Source: Myxococcota bacterium
Lineage (GTDB): Bacteria; Myxococcota_A; Polyangia; HGW-17
Direction: 5' to 3'
DNA: 64,000 nucleotides
Assembly: GCA_018821305.1 (NCBI GenBank)
Contig: JAHJMN010000189.1
Span: 55,115-119,114 of the forward strand
This document shows, piece after piece, positions 7,378-57,455 of the stretch; the stretch's first letter is position 1; each line of letters starts with the position of its first letter. The position numbers and the translations under genes are program-made. The notes beneath the pieces are model-generated. The model was given only the letters and a program-made list of their open reading frames with translations. It was not told the DNA's origin and searched no databases.

Positions 7378-7470
7378 TAGTTCGTGTCCGGAAATCGTCA
7401 AAGACGACAACTGTTTTCACCGAAAACAGTGAAAGTCCTGAGAGAAAAACTGTATTCAGGACAGTAACTG
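7378..7470 (+). mobile_element. MITE-like intergenic repeat, short copy with terminal inverted repeats plus internal module cgtcaaagacgacaa.tgttttca.cgaaaacagtga.agtcctgag
   Basis: tagttcgtgtccggaaat ... caggacagtaactg; the internal module recurs at 41.1 kb and 44.4 kb. Confidence 0.65.
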
Positions 7471-8407: not shown

Positions 8408-8549
8408 TAGTTCGTGTCCTGTAATTCGCTTCGCGAAGGATTTTATTAAAAATCCTAACAGGCCACTATTAATATTTTCAACATCTTGTGGTTACTATCC
8501 AGGAAAAAAAATCGACGAAAAATCTTTGTATTACAGGACATTAACTAAT
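8408..8549 (+). mobile_element. MITE-like intergenic repeat (module A copy)
   Basis: tagttcgtgtcctgtaattcgcttcgcgaaggattttattaaaaatcctaacaggccacta ... gtattacaggacattaactaat. The terminal inverted repeat is GTCCTGTAAT / ATTACAGGAC. Confidence 0.7.
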
Positions 8550-21963: not shown

Positions 21964-23619
21964 TTATGATTTTAAGTATTTTTCTGCAGACTCAATTATC
22001 TTCATAGGTAGCCCAAGTATACCTGCAATTAAAATCGCATCATTTTTCTTTACTTCATCACCACTAAAAATTGTATAGTCCATCAAATTATTTAATATAT
22101 TCAATGTCAATTCAGCGTTTTTTATCTTATGCAAATTATTTTTAAGGCTTCCTGCACTAAGAGACAAAACGCCTGGATGTTTTCCTGCTTCATGAATATG
22201 CCCTGCGAAAATTGCAAAGTTGTGATCTCCTACTTTTATATAGTCAAATAAAGCTTTAGTAAGGGCTAGAGCTGATTCAACATCTGTACTTCTAGCAAAT
22301 TCATCAAAAAGTAGAAAATAGTCACTCCCATCAAGAGATGTAATGAGATCTCTTATTTCCCGCCCAAATGACGAAAGGCCCTTTTCGGGAGAGTCGGAAA
22401 CGGATCCTAACCAACGGATAGATTTAAAGAGTCTTGAACTGAAACTTGTGCATGGCAATCCAGCTCCCATTTGAAATAATGCTTGAAAAAAGCCGGCTGT
22501 CCTTAAAAATGAACTTTTTCCACCCATATTGGGCCCTGTAAGGTTAACCAACTGCGATGTAATTAAAACTGTCACTGGAGTATAGGTGCCACCACAGTGT
22601 TCCACCTGTTTTTTTATCCAGGGATGAACTCCACCCTTCAAGACAAATGAATTTTTGTCTTCAATAATCGGAATGCAGCAATTGTATTCTTTATTAAAAA
22701 TTGCCAGTGCATTACACATATCCAATTTTCCTAAAAGCTCTAAATCTGACTTATAAATATCTCTAAGAACCAACCAGATTTCCCTGGATATCTTTCCAAA
22801 TAGTTTCTTTTCCAAAAGAAAAGTTTGTTTTTTGATTTTATTAAGTTTTTCTAATACCTGGTCAATTTTCGGTGTTGACCCAAGCCTGTATTTCCAGCTG
22901 TCCTGGCTGTTCTCAAGCAGATTAAAATAACCACTTTTCAAAATAATTTCATTGAATCCAGGGTTATCTTTTCCAACCACCAGGTCCATTCTGAGAGATG
23001 ATTGCTTAATCCCGAGGAATTGGGCGGCTTCTTTTCGGTGTTCCTGTTCTAAAAAAGAAAGCTGATTACTCAAATCATATCGATTTTTGCGTAAATCCTG
23101 TGGCAAACCAATCCCACAATTAAAGCAATCATCAGATATATATGGACCAATTATATCCAGAGCCCGGTCCCAGTTATCTGAAAAACCCCAATATGGATCA
23201 CCATTGCTTTCCAGTAATATATTTTTAATAAGACCAATAGCGTGAGCTATCTTAAATATTACTGTCAACTCAATGTCAGTCCAACTCTCATAACTTTCTT
23301 CAAAAACTGAAATATCACGCACAGATTTTAAGGCTCTGAGAATTATGTTCCCATTTAGCTCTTTGTGAATAATTTCTGACCAGGATTTTAATCGGAAAAA
23401 GTGCTCCTCAAGCTCTTTTTCCATTCCTGTAATGAAAAACGAAGGTTTTTGAAGCCAGATACGTCCAGGTTCCGAATTAACACAAAGGGAATCAAGGAAC
23501 TGCTTGAAAAAAATTGTTTTACTGGTTACAGAATCCAGAAATTCGTTTTTCTTGTTAAAATCAGTCAAAACCTGAAAACTCCACAGTCCAAACCATCCAG
23601 TTACTGTCCTGAAATACAA
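21964..23619 (-). CDS. MutS2-family ATPase (MutS domain V, no mismatch-binding domain); 5' end lies inside a MITE copy and the start codon is uncertain
   Basis: Walker A LTGPNMGGKSSFLRTAG, Walker B-like FLLFDEFARSTD. The track's N-terminus MYFRTVTGW translates a MITE terminal inverted repeat. The true start may be the TTG/ATG downstream (VLTDFNKK... or M at about 23424). Confidence 0.65.
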   Translation of the reverse strand: MYFRTVTGWFGLWSFQVLTDFNKKNEFLDSVTSKTIFFKQFLDSLCVNSEPGRIWLQKPSFFITGMEKELEEHFFRLKSWSEIIHKELNGNIILRALKSVRDISVFEESYESWTDIELTVIFKIAHAIGLIKNILLESNGDPYWGFSDNWDRALDIIGPYISDDCFNCGIGLPQDLRKNRYDLSNQLSFLEQEHRKEAAQFLGIKQSSLRMDLVVGKDNPGFNEIILKSGYFNLLENSQDSWKYRLGSTPKIDQVLEKLNKIKKQTFLLEKKLFGKISREIWLVLRDIYKSDLELLGKLDMCNALAIFNKEYNCCIPIIEDKNSFVLKGGVHPWIKKQVEHCGGTYTPVTVLITSQLVNLTGPNMGGKSSFLRTAGFFQALFQMGAGLPCTSFSSRLFKSIRWLGSVSDSPEKGLSSFGREIRDLITSLDGSDYFLLFDEFARSTDVESALALTKALFDYIKVGDHNFAIFAGHIHEAGKHPGVLSLSAGSLKNNLHKIKNAELTLNILNNLMDYTIFSGDEVKKNDAILIAGILGLPMKIIESAEKYLKS

Positions 23620-23665
23620 AAAATCAAATTTTTAACCGATTTTTTTCTCAGGACACGAACTATCC
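23599..23665. mobile_element. MITE-like intergenic repeat, minimal copy (terminal inverted repeats plus about 30-nt core)
   Basis: agttactgtcctgaaatac aaaaaatcaaatttttaaccgatttttttc tcaggacacgaactat. Confidence 0.65.
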
Positions 23666-25115: not shown

Positions 25116-25126
25116 ATAGTTACTGT

Positions 25127-25172
25127 CCTGAAATACCGAAAATCAAATTTTTCGCCGATTTTTAGCTCAGGA
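25127..25172. repeat. MITE-like repeat fragment (module C) immediately upstream of the 25181 gene
   Basis: tagttactgtcctgaaataccgaaaatcaaatttttcgccgatttttagctcaggag. The final AGGAG acts as the ribosome-binding site for the ATG at 25181. Confidence 0.55.
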
Positions 25173-35243: not shown

Positions 35244-37364
35244 ATGAAGATAATCTCAATAAGTATTCTTTTGTTAATTATGGTGGCTGGATGTTCTAAA
35301 AAGTGCCCATCTTTAGAAAAAAACGAGGAAAAACAGGGACCTCAAATTAAGAAAGACACTAAATTTCATGGCGAAAAAATAAAGCCAAGGCAGGACACAA
35401 AAAAGTTGCCACATGCGCTTTCTGAAAAAATCATTAAAACACTTATATCAAAACATGGAAGCCGGGAGACTTTGAGAATTAGAAAAGGTGTAATTCAGGC
35501 ATCCAGCCTCTGGAATCCGGCTGTTGACGGTGACTCAAAAATCTTTGAAGAATTCTGCGATAAAAACTTTATTCCTGACGGTCCTGTCCGTGAAGAACTG
35601 TTCACTCGCATGAGTCGTAACCTTGAGATTGTTTACGGAAATTCCAATAGAATACGGATTGATCTTAAAGCTCCGGTGGATGTTGAAATTGGTAAGATTC
35701 TCCCTGTTGACCGGCTTTTTGCAGCATGGAATATGGCATCCCATTTTATTGAAGATATGTATTCAAGTAAAATTGCATTTATCACAGTCCTTAATTTTCC
35801 AAACTATACCCTTGAGGAAAAAAAGTCCTCCGGAACTAACTGGACACGCCTTGAATGGGCATATGCCAGACTTGGTGATGTTTTTACTTCCCGAGTCCCC
35901 TCCAGCGTTAAACAGGGAATTGAAACCGCATTTACCCAGGCAGATACATATATTTCCTCTTATAATATTTTTATGAACAATGTAATTGATGAGAAATTTG
36001 AAAGCCTATTTCCGGTGGGAATGAAACTCATTACACACTGGAACCTCAGAGATGAACTAAAGTCAAGATATGCTGACAAAACAAACGGTTTTAAAGCTCA
36101 AAAGCAGATTTTTGCCGTTATGAAGCGAATTATAGATCAGACTATTCCCGTGGATGTTATCAATAAAAATAACGCCAAATGGGACCCTGTAAATAATAAG
36201 CTTTTCCATGACAAGAAAGAAGTAAAATTCACAACTGAACCTGATACAAGATATGAATATCTTTTAAAAAATTTTATAGCCGTTAAAACTGAAGATCAAT
36301 ACTCCCCCGGGTATCCTACTTATATAAAAAGAGTTTTCGACAGGGATCTTGAGTATACGGAAACTGAAATTGAAGGACTTTTCGTAAAACTGGTTTCATC
36401 TCCTCTTGCAAAAGAGGTAGGAAAACTCATTGAAAAACGCCTCGGAAGAAAACTTGAGCCCTTCGATATCTGGTATGATGGATTTAAAACAAGATCCTCA
36501 ATTCCTGATAAAGAATTAACAGCAGAAACCAGGAAAAAGTATCTATCTGCAGCGGCATTTCATGCAGATATGCCCAGAATCCTTACTCATCTTGGCTTTA
36601 CTCCGGAAAAAGCAACTTTTATTCAATCACGCATTACAGTTGACCCAAGTCGCGGAGCAGGACATGCCTGGGGTTCGGAAATGAGAACAGATAAAAGCCA
36701 TCTCCGGACTAGAATTGGCCCCGAAGGAATGGATTATAAGGGTTACAATATTGCGATCCACGAACTTGGGCACAATGTTGAACAGACAATTACTCTGCAC
36801 GATGTTGATTATTATTTGATGAAAGGTGTTCCAAATACTGCTTTTACAGAGGCGTGGGCATTTATCTTCCAGCGTCGAGATCTTGAACTTCTTGGTAAAA
36901 AAGAAACAGATCCTCTTCGCCAACATCTTGCTGTGCTGGATAATTTCTGGTCTTCTTATGAAATAATGGGAGTAAGTCTTGTGGATATGAAAGTGTGGCG
37001 ATGGCTGTACGCTAATCCCAACGCTGACAAGACAAAGTTAAAAAATGCGGTGATTTCTATTGCAAAAGAAGTATGGAATCTTTACTTTGCACCGGTATTT
37101 GGTGTAAAGGATCAAACAATTTTAGCAATTTATAGTCATATGATTGATTATCCACTTTATTTACCGGCCTACCCAATTGGGCATCTGGCCGAATTTCAAA
37201 TTGAACAGCATATTCACGGAAAAAATATCGGGACAGAAATGACCAGAATCTGCTCTCAGGGACGCCTGGTGCCGGACCTCTGGATGAAAGGGGCAGTAAA
37301 CAATGCTCTGAGTGTTGATCCAACTCTGAAAGCCACAACTGAAGCTCTTAAAAATGTTAAATAG
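35244..37364 (+). CDS. putative gluzincin zinc metallopeptidase, lipoprotein
   Basis: Lipobox LIMVAGCSKK. HELGH (HExxH) with a downstream Glu in TEAWAF; 706 aa. Confidence 0.5.
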   Translation: MKIISISILLLIMVAGCSKKCPSLEKNEEKQGPQIKKDTKFHGEKIKPRQDTKKLPHALSEKIIKTLISKHGSRETLRIRKGVIQASSLWNPAVDGDSKIFEEFCDKNFIPDGPVREELFTRMSRNLEIVYGNSNRIRIDLKAPVDVEIGKILPVDRLFAAWNMASHFIEDMYSSKIAFITVLNFPNYTLEEKKSSGTNWTRLEWAYARLGDVFTSRVPSSVKQGIETAFTQADTYISSYNIFMNNVIDEKFESLFPVGMKLITHWNLRDELKSRYADKTNGFKAQKQIFAVMKRIIDQTIPVDVINKNNAKWDPVNNKLFHDKKEVKFTTEPDTRYEYLLKNFIAVKTEDQYSPGYPTYIKRVFDRDLEYTETEIEGLFVKLVSSPLAKEVGKLIEKRLGRKLEPFDIWYDGFKTRSSIPDKELTAETRKKYLSAAAFHADMPRILTHLGFTPEKATFIQSRITVDPSRGAGHAWGSEMRTDKSHLRTRIGPEGMDYKGYNIAIHELGHNVEQTITLHDVDYYLMKGVPNTAFTEAWAFIFQRRDLELLGKKETDPLRQHLAVLDNFWSSYEIMGVSLVDMKVWRWLYANPNADKTKLKNAVISIAKEVWNLYFAPVFGVKDQTILAIYSHMIDYPLYLPAYPIGHLAEFQIEQHIHGKNIGTEMTRICSQGRLVPDLWMKGAVNNALSVDPTLKATTEALKNVK

Positions 37365-37433
37365 TTAATGTCCTGTAATTCGACATTTTCAAGTTAATGA
37401 CGAATTTGTACACAGGACATTAAGAATGAAGGC
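37362..37433. mobile_element. MITE-like intergenic repeat, minimal copy
   Basis: tagttaatgtcctgtaattcgacattttcaagttaatgacgaatttgtacacaggacattaagaatgaagg. A further terminal-repeat-like fragment (ctattaatgtcctggaaat) spans the start codon of the next gene. Confidence 0.6.
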
Positions 37434-41071: not shown

Positions 41072-41356
41072 CTTCGTGAAGCGAATTAGTTACTGTCCTG
41101 AAATACCGTTTTTCAAATTTTTTGCCGATTTTTTGCTCAGGACTCTCACTGTTTTCGATGAAAACAATTGTCGTCTTTGACGATTTCCTTCGGAAATCCG
41201 TTTTAGACAGTAACCGCAAGGTGCTTACGCTTCCGCGCTTCGCTGCGCGAGAGCGCTATAGTTGAATTTATTACTAGTGGCCTGTTAGGATTTTTAATAA
41301 AATCCTTCGCGAAGCGAATTACAGGACACGAACGAATTACAGGATACAAACTATTT
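41072..41356 (-). mobile_element. MITE-like intergenic repeat, longest copy (modules A, B, D, C); reverse complement of the 44.3 kb copy with an extra insert of about 50 nt
   Basis: The reverse complement reads ttcgtgtcctgtaattcgcttcgcgaaggattttattaaaaatcctaacaggccact ... ccttgcggttactgtctaaaacggatttccgaaggaaatcgtcaaagacgacaattgttttcatcgaaaacagtgagagtcctgagcaaaaaatcggcaaaaaatttgaaaaacggtatttcaggacagtaactaat. Confidence 0.75.
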
Positions 41357-43147: not shown

Positions 43148-44035
43148 ATGCCCTCATCAATTCCAACGTCTCTTTATCCCGCAATGGTTGCCGGTATTAT
43201 TGGTTGTATCCTGCTTCTACCCCAGTTTTTCAGATTATTTTTTGTTCAGCCTATCAACATCCCCATATTTTCGAGTGTTATTCAGAAACTGATTATTGCG
43301 GGTAATATTGAGCGGGCTATTAAACTCTGCAGTGCCGCCCCCACGGCTTTAATTGCTCGTGGTACAAAAGGAGTCCTTCAGGGCGTTATGCGTGGAGAAA
43401 AAGATCCCGAATCAATCAGAAGGAATTTTGTTGATCAATTTTCCCCCTTAACTCTTGATGGCGAATTAAACAGGTATCGCACTTTAAGCGCATTGGGCTT
43501 TGCTATCGCCATCGGAGGCGGCGCTTATACAACGCTGGCATTGAATGTCCCTCCTGGAAAACATCTTATCCCTGTTGGTGTTGCCGTTTTCCTTGATTTT
43601 ATAATTATTTTTCGGACTATGAAAATGAAAACACAAATTCAAGGATATCTAATTTTTATGTCCCATGTTTTTGCGGGAGAAAACCAGAGTTCTATCGCTA
43701 AAGTAAATGAAAAAATTAAAAACCACGCTTGTCCTGCTTGTGGAAAAGAAAACCCCGAGCATTACCGATTCTGCCTTGGCTGCGGTGGAGATCTTAATCA
43801 AGGTAGGCTAACAGAAGGTGCAACCACTGACGAACAATCTGAGGAGATTGGAAATTTTGTTACCGAAAAATCAAATACTGCTTCCTCAAAAAAAGTTGTC
43901 TGCAAGAATTGCGGTTCTGAATTGAAAGTAGCAGCTTCAGTTCTTGAAGAAATAAATTCAGAGTTTGACATTTTCTCCCGTATTGACTCCTCCTGCCCCA
44001 AGTGTGGCTCCTCATTCTTTGAACTCCATGGGTAA
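43148..44035 (+). CDS. membrane protein with C-terminal double zinc-ribbon
   Basis: N-terminal TM helices. CPACGKENPEHYRFCLGCGGDL and CKNCGSELK...CPKCGSSFF. Confidence 0.5.
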   Translation: MPSSIPTSLYPAMVAGIIGCILLLPQFFRLFFVQPINIPIFSSVIQKLIIAGNIERAIKLCSAAPTALIARGTKGVLQGVMRGEKDPESIRRNFVDQFSPLTLDGELNRYRTLSALGFAIAIGGGAYTTLALNVPPGKHLIPVGVAVFLDFIIIFRTMKMKTQIQGYLIFMSHVFAGENQSSIAKVNEKIKNHACPACGKENPEHYRFCLGCGGDLNQGRLTEGATTDEQSEEIGNFVTEKSNTASSKKVVCKNCGSELKVAASVLEEINSEFDIFSRIDSSCPKCGSSFFELHG

Positions 44036-44074
44036 ATTTGGTTCATGTGCTTAGTAATAAGATTGTGAGTTATT

Positions 44075-44282
44075 TTAAAGAAATGCTTCAGGAATGAGCC
44101 CCCTGTTTTCCTGTTCCTGCTACTGATTTCCTGTTTATCTGAAATTTTTTAACAGGTACTCAGGCAGTCAGATAAACAGGGGCAGGGTCAGATCATAAAC
44201 ATCTAATATCAATGTAAAATTACAAAAACTAGAAGTAAATATTCACTTTTTAGATTTTGATCCTTTTACTCATGAAGCGGTT
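44075..44282 (+). repeat. Repeat B, copy 1: direct repeat of about 230 nt with internal 13-bp inverted repeat
   Basis: ttattttaaagaaatgcttcaggaatgagccc...cctgttttcctgttcctgctactgatttcctgtttatctga-N30-tcagataaacagg...; about 75-80% identical to the 45.2 kb copy. Confidence 0.6.
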
Positions 44283-44497
44283 TAGATCGTGTCCTGTAAT
44301 TCGCTTCGCTAAGGATTTTATCAAAAATCCTAACAGGCCACTACTAGTAAATTCAACACCTTGCGGTTACTGTCTAAAACGGATTTCCGAAGGAAATCGT
44401 CAAAGACGACAATTGTTTTCATCGAAAACAGTGAGAGTCATGAGCAAAAAATCGGTAAAAAATTTGATTTCTTTTATTTCAGTACAGTAACTATTTG
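44283..44497 (+). mobile_element. MITE-like intergenic repeat (modules A, B, D, C), plus-orientation counterpart of the 41.1 kb copy
   Basis: tcgtgtcctgtaattcgcttcgctaaggattttatcaaaaatcctaacaggccactactagtaaattcaacaccttgcggttactgtctaaaacggatttccgaaggaaatcgtcaaagacgacaattgttttcatcgaaaacagtgagagtcatgagcaaaaaatcggtaaaaaatttgatttcttttatttcagtacagtaactatttg. Confidence 0.75.
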
Positions 44498-44571
44498 AAA
44501 GCAGTAAATGACTTGCCAGTTTATGGTAAATATTCTAATCTTTTTCCAGCGAAAAGAACCGGGAGACACAA

Positions 44572-45192
44572 ATGAAAACTTATACAATGGATACGGCTTC
44601 TCAGGACCTTATTGAAGTAGGCTCATATCACCTTGCCATGCTTAAGTCCGAAGAAGCGACTTTAGTTCTTGCAGAAGACTTTCAATATATTCAGGATAAT
44701 CTACGAAAAACCAGAGATGCCCTTTCGGAAAAACATGAAAAAACACTCACATGTTTAGCCCTGAAAAACCGAAATGATCACATACTGGACAAAGAAGTGA
44801 TGACTTTCGAAAAAGCCCTTCTGGAATCTCTTGGAAAAGATCGGAAAAATCCCATTTATAAAAAGATATTTCCTTCCGGTCGTTTTAAAGTCACTAAGCT
44901 TCCGATAAACAAAGTAATGGAAGCCGTTATTATTCTTGAGAAATCTATTGAGAGTGCTGAAATAGATGACAGCCTTAAATCTTTTGGTGAATCACTGAAA
45001 ATTCGTCGTCAATCTCTTCATGAAAGCCTGAATTCATACCGTGCTGCTCTCCGAAGTGAAGGCGAAAGCCGAGTTGAACTCCAACTTGCTAAAGAAGAAT
45101 GGTTGAGACTTTATGCAATATGTCAAAACCTCGTAAGAAATGTCTATTCTAATGATCCCGACATGTACGCATGTTTCTTTCCGGATTTTTAA
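44572..45192 (+). CDS. hypothetical protein, flanked by Repeat B direct repeats
   Basis: 206-aa ORF; predicted helical, charged; no motifs recognised. Confidence 0.4.
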   Translation: MKTYTMDTASQDLIEVGSYHLAMLKSEEATLVLAEDFQYIQDNLRKTRDALSEKHEKTLTCLALKNRNDHILDKEVMTFEKALLESLGKDRKNPIYKKIFPSGRFKVTKLPINKVMEAVIILEKSIESAEIDDSLKSFGESLKIRRQSLHESLNSYRAALRSEGESRVELQLAKEEWLRLYAICQNLVRNVYSNDPDMYACFFPDF

Positions 45193-45239
45193 AATTTTAA
45201 ATTGAGCAATCAGGGGGACCGACACGATAGTAACTTAAT

Positions 45240-45480
45240 TTAAAGAAAAGCTTCAAGAGAAAGCCCATCGCATTCCGCTGCGCGAAATTGCCTACCTGAT
45301 TTTCCTGTTGTTGCTACTGATTTCCTGAATACCTGATTTTTTTAACAGGGAATCAGGAAGTCAGGTAAACAGGGTCAGGAACAGCGGATAACCATTCAAT
45401 ATCAAATAATAATTAAAAAGAACGTAATTTTTAATTCAATTTCCCAATTTCGATCCTCGTACTCAGGAAGCGGTCTGGAT
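45240..45480 (+). repeat. Repeat B, copy 2
   Basis: ttaatttaaagaaaagcttcaagagaaagccc...ctgattttcctgttgttgctactgatttcctgaatacctga...tcaggtaaacagggtcagg... Confidence 0.6.
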
Positions 45481-45492
45481 GGGAAAACTGGT

Positions 45493-45687
45493 CTATTTGT
45501 CTTTGATCATTGTCGGATTGGTACTTGATTTAATAAGGTCTTCAATTTCAGTCCGTCGCTCACCATATCTTTGCTTAACCATTTCATCAATTACATCCTG
45601 CATAGTTCTTTTTTCTACTATACTTATAAGCTTCAATCTTTTGTGTGTTGAAAGAGATATCTTAAGAGTTGTGGTTTCTTCAGACAT
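45493..45687 (-). CDS. small ribbon-helix-helix (CopG/Arc/MetJ-like) DNA-binding protein; no toxin partner evident
   Basis: 64 aa. TTTLKISLSTHKRLKLISIVEKRTMQDVIDEMVKQ shows a beta-strand then helix-helix pattern typical of RHH regulators and antitoxins. Confidence 0.4.
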   Translation of the reverse strand: MSEETTTLKISLSTHKRLKLISIVEKRTMQDVIDEMVKQRYGERRTEIEDLIKSSTNPTMIKDK

Positions 45688-51245: not shown

Positions 51246-51396
51246 TAGTTCGTGTCCGGAAATTCGCTTCGCGAAGAATTTTATTAAAAATTCTATCCGG
51301 CCACTACCAGTAAATTCAACACCTTGCGGTTACTGTCCTGAGCAAAAAATCGGCGAAAAATTTGATTTTGGTTATTTCAGGACAGTAACTAAATAG
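51246..51396 (+). mobile_element. MITE-like intergenic repeat (modules A, B, C), first of three abutting copies
   Basis: tagttcgtgtccggaaattcgcttcgcgaagaattttattaaaaattctatccggccactaccagtaaattcaacaccttgcggttactgtcctgagcaaaaaatcggcgaaaaatttgattttggttatttcaggacagtaactaaat. Confidence 0.75.
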
Positions 51397-51575
51397 TTCG
51401 TGTCCTGAAATTCAATTTTGGTCAAAATTGAGCATGTTTACGAAAACATGCTATTCAGAACACTATAATAATTTCAAGGTCTTCATTCTTAATGTCCTGT
51501 GCCTTAATTCGGCATAAACTTGAAAAGATCGTATTTCAGGACATTAACTAAATAGTTCGTGTCCTGCAAAGAACC
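51397..51575 (+). mobile_element. MITE-like repeats, second copy (module E: ttcattcttaatgtcctgtg...atcgtatttcaggacattaacta) plus a third truncated terminal repeat
   Basis: agttcgtgtcctgaaattcaa...cttcattcttaatgtcctgtgccttaattcggcataaacttgaaaagatcgtatttcaggacattaactaaatagttcgtgtcctgcaaag. Confidence 0.65.
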
Positions 51576-57242: not shown

Positions 57243-57391
57243 AATAACAAATTAGGTTTTTAAAAACAAAATAAAAAACAGCCGGACACAAACTCTTTGT
57301 AACCTGTGAGAAAAATCAGTTCAATTTATATAGGATGACACAGCTTGTTTCCACCTTACTGCTTCCGGGAATAAAAGGATCGAAACAAGGC

Positions 57392-57455
57392 ATTCATTCT
57401 TAATGTCCTGTGTCCAAATTTGGTGTAAATTTGAAAAGATCGTATTTCATGACTG
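57392..57455. repeat. MITE-like repeat (module E copy)
   Basis: ttcattcttaatgtcctgtgtccaaatttggtgtaaatttgaaaagatcgtatttcatgactg. Confidence 0.55.

Follow-up and report, generated by a model that had tools for sequence, protein, structure and literature searches.

The 64,000-nucleotide stretch analysed in this work, which we call the window, comes from a genome labelled Myxococcota (GenBank assembly GCA_018821305.1, contig JAHJMN010000189.1, positions 55,115 to 119,114 of the forward strand). In our analysis it was located at positions 55121-119120 of contig JAHJQC010000090.1 in the metagenome-assembled genome GCA_018819425.1. At the locus of interest a gene for a 295-amino-acid (aa) membrane protein with double zinc-ribbon (DZR) motifs is followed on the same strand by a 206-aa gene, which converges with a 64-aa gene encoding a possible ribbon-helix-helix (RHH) protein (Table 1). 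The original prediction, made from the letters of the sequence, had noticed that the 206-aa open reading frame (ORF), together with a miniature inverted-repeat transposable element (MITE) preceding it, is bracketed by two similar sequences, and our analysis agrees with this description. The two sequences, B1 and B2, are same-strand copies of one non-coding sequence, which we call Repeat B. In our best reading Repeat B is a non-coding low-copy interspersed repeat of ~225-255 bp, which consists of short imperfect terminal inverted repeats (TIRs), a central imperfect palindrome of ~85-90 nucleotides (nt) and an AT-rich segment. Comparison with the sequences of relatives indicates that the 206-aa gene is ancestral at this locus, and that the repeats are additions around it.

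The homology between B1 and B2 is far beyond chance. In blastn the two copies were 74.9% identical over 191 nt (E values between 1e-29 and 2.5e-27), a repeat finder run on the window reported a family of 143 nt (73% identity) and a block of 44 nt (84% identity), and in a MAFFT alignment 170 of the 229 ungapped columns (74%) were identical. The same-orientation direct repeat of ~230 bp that had been proposed is thus real. Its location was also right, but the limits given for it (44075-44282 and 45240-45480) have to be shifted: the homology reaches leftward to ~44053 in B1 and ~45218 in B2, and its right end, ...GAAGCGGT(T/C)T, is at 44282 in B1 and at 45476 in B2. The identity is unevenly distributed, being highest in the hairpin (82%), intermediate in the ends (76-78%) and lowest in the AT-rich part (61%). 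Both copies start 17-34 nt past the stop codon of a plus-strand gene, as expected from the earlier observation that each of them follows the 3' end of such a gene. Neither B1 nor B2 contains an ORF of 20 aa or more, and Tandem Repeats Finder detected no tandem array in the arms of the B hairpin.

Two relatives, both represented by Logan contigs, were informative about the history of the locus. The contig L009 (SRR32001354) is 83-89% identical to the window at the nt level and has the same order of a 254-aa gene, a DUF4846 gene, the zinc-ribbon gene and the 206-aa gene. From the zinc-ribbon stop codon to the start codon of the 206-aa gene there are 86 bp in L009 vs. 536 bp in the window. The window segment 44036-44504, which comprises B1 and the MITE (469 bp), is represented in L009 by ~19-26 bp, and the homology picks up again at TAAATGACTTGCC, just upstream of a promoter-like element. 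The second contig, L028 (SRR32167788), is more distant (75-80% nt identity). The 206-aa gene and the RHH gene are convergent also in L028, where their stop codons are separated by 81 bp vs. 300 bp in the window, and in this 81-bp spacer no B was detectable; one AT-rich 19-mer match to B2 was marginal (p ~0.02). A distant homologue of the 206-aa protein (71% aa identity; L007/L008) is encoded in another gene context, also without B. Since the relatives keep the 206-aa gene without B1 (L009) or without B2 (L028), the gene is the old resident and the repeats are the later arrivals. It had been envisaged that relatives might lack the gene as a result of precise excision between the repeats; what we saw was the opposite, the gene being kept in both L009 and L028.

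The L009 contig also gives a hint about the relative age of the two copies. It ends 34 nt past the stop codon of the 206-aa gene, 16 nt into B, and its last 23 nt can be aligned, in register, to the left end of B2 as well as to that of B1. Moreover, the B2 flank of L009 shares the motif AGTAATA with B1, where B2 of the window has diverged. L009 probably possesses B2, and because its tail is in register with the left ends of B, B2 probably predates B1. Identity at four-fold degenerate sites between the window and L009 is 46-67%, whereas B1 and B2 are 74% identical (82% in the hairpin). It follows that, if the copies are unconstrained, B1 and B2 separated no earlier than the split from L009.

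Table 1. Features of the Repeat B locus and other small repeats in the window
Feature	Position	Strand	Remarks
Gene for 295-aa membrane protein with DZR motifs	43148-44035	+	3' end precedes B1
B1	44053-44282	+	Non-coding; begins 17 nt past the stop codon of the DZR gene; missing at the orthologous site of L009
B1, left TIR candidate, GCTTCAGGAATGAG	44085-44098		Pairs with 44269-44278 (CTCATGAAGC); closing stem in folds; short, imperfect
B1, long imperfect hairpin/palindrome	44100-44182		Outer stem CCCCTGTTT/AAACAGGGG; contains perfect 13-bp inverted repeat
MITE	44285-44491	+	Ends GATCGTGTCCTG...CAGTACAGTAAC; TA duplication 44283-44284/44492-44493; at 3' edge of B1
206-aa gene	44572-45192	+	Conserved at locus; between B1 and B2
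B2	45218-45476	+	Flanked by the stop codons of two genes, the 206-aa (+) and the 64-aa RHH-like one (-)
Extra segment, B2 only	45266-45294	+	29 nt, GC-rich
B2, long imperfect hairpin	45295-45380		12-bp stem and 11/13 version of the B1 inverted repeat
64-aa gene, possible RHH protein	45493-45687	-	Converges on B2
Further copies of the MITE family	41089-41333 (-), 8410-8500, 51248-51389, 7380-7468, 23600-23660 (-), 25119-25172 (-)		Also in L024 and L026
Second, shorter MITE-like family, ~60-90 bp	37364-37424, 51488-51548 (-), 57386-57453 (-), 8534-8545		

The central part of Repeat B is a long imperfect palindrome, which can fold into a hairpin in both copies. The perfect 13-bp inverted repeat reported for the first copy is present (44130-44142 and 44168-44180, CCTGTTTATCTGA/TCAGATAAACAGG), with a spacer of 25 nt and not, as had been stated, 30 nt. 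The degenerate version ascribed to the second copy could also be located (45324-45336 and 45361-45373); 11 of the 13 positions are kept. In addition, B2 has a 12-bp stem of its own, with one G-U pair, in another register (45317-45328 and 45353-45364). Several pairing registers exist because the hairpin arms are runs of six CTG or six CAG motifs. Compared with shuffled sequences the hairpin folds far better, with z scores between -3.6 and -4.8 as RNA and between -2.5 and -4.4 as DNA (B1, -3.6 to -4.3; B2, -2.5 to -4.8), and the folding is equally good on either strand, without strand preference. The positions in B2 equivalent to the B1 TIR candidate are 45250-45259 and 45462-45471.

Searches for known RNA features in and around the repeats were largely negative. 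Rfam 15 gave no match in the window at the gathering thresholds, and at E values up to 10 the only matches were to generic microRNA-precursor hairpins (15-25 bits vs. thresholds of 50-100). No tRNA or tmRNA gene was found, and the terminator scan detected no canonical intrinsic terminator within B1 or B2. By eye, a weak terminator-like candidate can be recognized on the minus strand at the left end of B, where a small hairpin is followed by UUUCUUUAAA, and there is a sigma-70-like site on the minus strand in the AT-rich part of B2. A covariance model of the hairpin matched weakly (E ~0.05) in the zinc-ribbon gene (43557-43654) and in L009 (2445-2521). The stretch 43557-43654 is T-rich coding sequence, 61% similar to the left arm of B and located in the orthologous place in both strains; the match is probably due to chance.

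The MITE at the 3' edge of B1 is not a solitary element. It belongs to a TA-flanked family with the ends GTTCGTGTCCTG...CAGGACAGTAAC, of which the window contains at least eight copies or fragments, either full-length (~210-250 bp) or internally deleted (~60-90 bp). Such ends combined with a TA duplication are a signature which we take to indicate mobilisation of the IS630/Tc1-mariner type. No transposase was found in the window. The MITE copies at 41k and 44k are missing at the orthologous sites of L009. The second, shorter MITE-like family has related ends, GTTAATGTCCTG...CAGGACATTAA(C/G), and a near-perfect hairpin fold.

Repeat B and the MITEs touch or resemble each other at two edges. The right edge of B1 adjoins the 5' end of the MITE, and the left edge of B2 (45223-45234; CACGATAGTAAC, then TT) matches the 3' terminal repeat of the MITE family, CAGGACAGTAAC, in 10 of 12 positions. 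This MITE-like 12-mer is kept in L009, whose contig stops 2 nt further on. The 12-mer suggests, as a candidate idea only and from two copies of B, a composite MITE-B-MITE origin. Another 12-mer, TCGCGCAGCG(G/A)A, is common to the extra segment of B2 and to an extra segment in one of the MITE copies (41238-41250). GC-rich extras of ~29-38 nt were observed in one copy each of two unrelated repeats, B2 and a MITE copy. The GC-rich extra segment could represent a third, tiny insertion sequence or may mark a hotspot of the same fill-in type.

Further copies of B were sought in the window, in the 8-10 kb of contig adjoining it at either end (~80 kb altogether) and in the contigs of four relatives. 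With blastn (word size 7) and nhmmer no copy other than B1 and B2 was found in these sequences, and the covariance model of the hairpin, run on the same sequences and on L028, yielded only B1 and B2 as accepted matches. We also scanned several collections. The B-core pattern GTTNNTGCTACTGATTTCCTG gave four chance matches among those listed for the genome-contig collection, without likeness beyond the pattern, two B patterns had no match in metagenome contigs, ten viral contig matches to a 16-mer of B were all due to chance, and blastn with B2 against plasmid and phage collections gave no match. Public data contain very little of this lineage, therefore the absence of B elsewhere means little. 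A different kind of evidence comes from the ends of contigs. The same strain is represented by a second assembly (GCA_018820545.1), in which two contigs terminate within B2 and overlap by 54 nt (45404-45457). Logan contigs of the same strain stop ~27-30 nt into MITE copies, thus repeats do break these assemblies. The breaks at B2 hint at further copies or at insertion polymorphism.

On the whole, we tentatively favor, at somewhat less than even confidence, the explanation that this lineage of an uncultured Myxococcota-like bacterium twice gained Repeat B, which would be a small interspersed repeat of the non-autonomous, broadly MITE-like type. According to this explanation B2 would have entered the spacer of the convergent 206-aa and RHH-like genes after the split from L028, and B1, as a copy of B2 or of an unseen sibling, would have arisen, at about the time of the split from L009 or thereafter, in the region that separates the zinc-ribbon gene from the promoter of the 206-aa gene. 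An IS630/Tc1-mariner-like MITE would then have landed in a TA at the 3' edge of B1. The order B2, B1, MITE is the most parsimonious history. We infer that a non-autonomous element, mobilised in trans, inserted to give the B copies, and that any effects on neighboring genes would be incidental: the palindrome may, for example, provide read-through transcripts with a 3'-terminal stem-loop, or the zinc-ribbon gene may have been moved apart from the promoter of the 206-aa gene. Several observations are consistent with the explanation. Small non-autonomous elements have demonstrably colonised this genome, the folding of the hairpin is as good on one strand as on the other, which a DNA-level palindrome should show, and B varies in presence at orthologous sites as MITEs do, L009 being without B1 and L028 without detectable B2.

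A number of points weigh against a mobile repeat. Only two copies of B were found in ~80 kb of contig, both within 1.4 kb, and the scans of the collections did not bring up a genuine further copy. Contig breaks like those in B2 can also arise from low coverage. We found no target-site duplication at B2, and the apparent GTTATTTTAAAG/GTTTATTTGAAAG duplication at B1, with its likeness to the L009 site, was not above chance (p ~0.5). The candidate TIRs, GCTTCA(n)GAG and CTCA(n)GAAGC, are only ~10-14 nt long and imperfect, and they begin 30-35 nt inward from where the homology starts on the left. The 81-bp spacer of L028 gave no alignment above chance with the flanks in the window and is too diverged to serve as an 'empty site'. 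Finally, as no outgroup covers the site, the absence of B1 from L009 may reflect a loss there and not a gain in the lineage of the window.

The same observations can be accounted for by a one-off local duplication that needs no transposition machinery, in which a ~230-bp B2 segment was copied once to a site 1.2 kb upstream, by template switching or illegitimate recombination, possibly provoked by the palindrome, and has drifted neutrally since. We consider this a possible but rather doubtful explanation. It comes close to the neutral local duplication that the original prediction had named as the contrary outcome. The small number of copies, their proximity and common orientation, and the lack of a target-site duplication are all what a local event would leave behind, the AT-rich part is the most diverged (61% identity), as drift predicts, and B2 appears older than B1. 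However, B2 is undetectable in L028, so that the sequence would still have to have been gained at least once before, the breaks of two independent assemblies at B2 hint at more copies or polymorphism, and a tandem mechanism would not yield the arrangement B-gene-B with B alone duplicated. It is less probable, and in our opinion unlikely, that B is a functional RNA module, either a stem-loop in the 3' untranslated region (3'-UTR) serving as stabiliser or terminator, or a small RNA gene, with selection maintaining the hairpin; one option would be a minus-strand RNA running from the AT-rich part through the hairpin and ending at the small hairpin and UUUCUUUAAA. Such a role would agree with the hairpin being the best conserved part (82% vs. 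61%), with its strong folding in both copies even though the best stems are in different registers, with a double change from A-T to G-C that leaves the 13-bp stem intact, with the location of both copies 3' of genes (B2 is 3' of genes on both strands), and with the sigma-70-like minus-strand site in B2. On the other hand, there is no Rfam family and the generic hairpin matches are far under threshold, a canonical intrinsic terminator or U-tract is missing, folding energy shows no strand preference, and the relatives manage without B at both sites. Moreover, two sequences provide no real power to detect covariation, and the repeated CTG/CAG motifs by themselves make pairing in several registers likely.

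Another possibility, to which we assign a lower likelihood still, is that B represents something new. In this low-GC, Myxococcota-like lineage, of which almost nothing has been sampled, it could be a small element that inserts 3' of genes without target-site duplication, or it could encode a structured RNA of ~150-200 nt, specific to the lineage and spreading as a module. An enzyme that recognises hairpins (HUH or IS110-like) might mobilise an element of this kind in trans, and the conserved multi-register CTG/CAG palindrome would be its recognition site or functional core. The original prediction had also mentioned recombination sites bracketing a cassette, and in this form integron attC-like or attL/attR sites would surround a mobile unit of MITE and 206-aa gene. 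The superficial geometry invites this idea, direct repeats with imperfect palindromes each lying 3' of an ORF in the same orientation, but the evidence contradicts it and we regard it as highly improbable. The gene is ancestral, lying beside the zinc-ribbon gene without B1 in L009 and beside the RHH gene without B2 in L028. The palindrome reads 5'-CTGTT...AACAG-3' on both strands and never corresponds to the attC pattern 5'-RYYYAAC...GTTRRRY-3', the ~230-bp homology runs well beyond the palindrome, and no integrase, transposase or recombinase was found in the scanned ORFs, which came from the window and the adjoining 8-10 kb. It is essentially refuted that the repeats define a mobile gene cassette. 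The earlier alternative of paralogous regulatory regions found no support either, because both copies are 3' of genes and absent in relatives.

The 206-aa protein belongs to an uncharacterised, probably helical family and is not an orphan: a full HMMER scan returned 84 representative clusters of proteins of ~210-240 aa, with E values up to 1e-3, and Y19, F100, G103, W177, Y181 and F203 are near-invariant in the family. No relative was found in Pfam, NCBIfam, PHROG or PDB. Homologues with 97%, 71% and ~80% (nt) identity were found, and close ones occur in only a few assemblies. Directly downstream of B1 and the MITE there is a promoter-like TTGCCA-17-TAATCT followed by GGGAGA and the ATG (44505-44571), which is kept in L009. 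As this stretch is conserved, the 206-aa gene probably retains its own promoter in spite of B1 and the MITE upstream. A 64-aa gene does lie beyond B2, as predicted, but its assignment as an RHH regulator derives only from a weak match to an Arc-like repressor PHROG (E 0.008); nothing was above the Pfam thresholds, and the AF2 model of the monomer consists of two helices and is uninformative on the fold. The gene has an 89% homologue in L028. The wider neighborhood is ordinary chromosomal DNA with genes for a GDSL lipase, a cation efflux protein, a DUF4846 protein, a serpin, an FHA protein, a Ser/Thr kinase, a radical SAM protein, a MutS-like protein and a histidine kinase. The GC content of the window is 40%, which is unusually low for a genome labelled Myxococcota by NCBI, and the lineage is very thinly sampled, close relatives being available only in a handful of metagenome-assembled genomes (MAGs) and Logan assemblies.

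The locus illustrates how a gene between direct repeats can look like a mobile cassette, while two relatives reveal an old gene with newcomer repeats around it. It also shows intergenic regions of a compact, poorly sampled genome growing by accretion of small repeats; here these are a GC-rich mini-insert, B and two families of MITEs. Should B have further copies, it would be a new family of small repeats, which could be used to mark strains and would explain some of the breaks in MAG assemblies. Repeat B is otherwise an ordinary-looking, new small intergenic repeat from an under-sampled lineage, and no open biological question hinges on it.

It is instructive to compare Repeat B with systems that combine hairpins, intergenic location and repetition. 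Intrinsic (bidirectional) terminators and 3'-UTR stem-loops are, like B, stable stem-loops directly 3' of genes, and B2 is between convergent genes, but the B stem is long, interrupted and AT-rich, its main hairpin is not followed by a U-tract, and the hairpin makes up less than half of the conserved unit. Integron attC sites and CALIN arrays share with B the imperfect palindromes placed after same-strand ORFs, and the sites in an array are ~75-80% alike. They differ as follows: in B the orientation of the R''/R' boxes is reversed (GTT on the left, AAC on the right), there is no integrase, only two sites are present, the homology is far longer than the palindrome, and it is the gene that is fixed in relatives and the sites that are missing.

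The IS200/IS605-derived PATEs and the REP/BIME sequences resemble B in that they contain hairpins, are intergenic and lack target-site duplications. B deviates by having one large central palindrome instead of subterminal hairpins, by the size of the palindrome (~85-90 vs. ~35 nt in REP/BIME), by the lack of a GTAG-type REP signature and by its low copy number (two copies in ~80 kb); no TnpA, RAYT or TnpB gene and no Y1 transposase was in view around B in the window or 8-10 kb beyond. B differs from MITE-like repeats in that only two copies were seen, the terminal repeats are very short and there is no target-site duplication, and its sequence is unlike that of the IS630-like MITE families of the genome, save for the 10/12 match at 45223-45234. 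In other respects B resembles small repeats of this kind. MITEs, ERIC, Correia (NEMIS) and RUP elements are, like B, ~100-300 bp long, non-coding and intergenic, with an inverted repeat, internal or terminal, able to form a long hairpin, the presence of such repeats varies at orthologous sites and they are often found at the 3' ends of genes, and the genome that harbors B carries bona fide MITEs as well.

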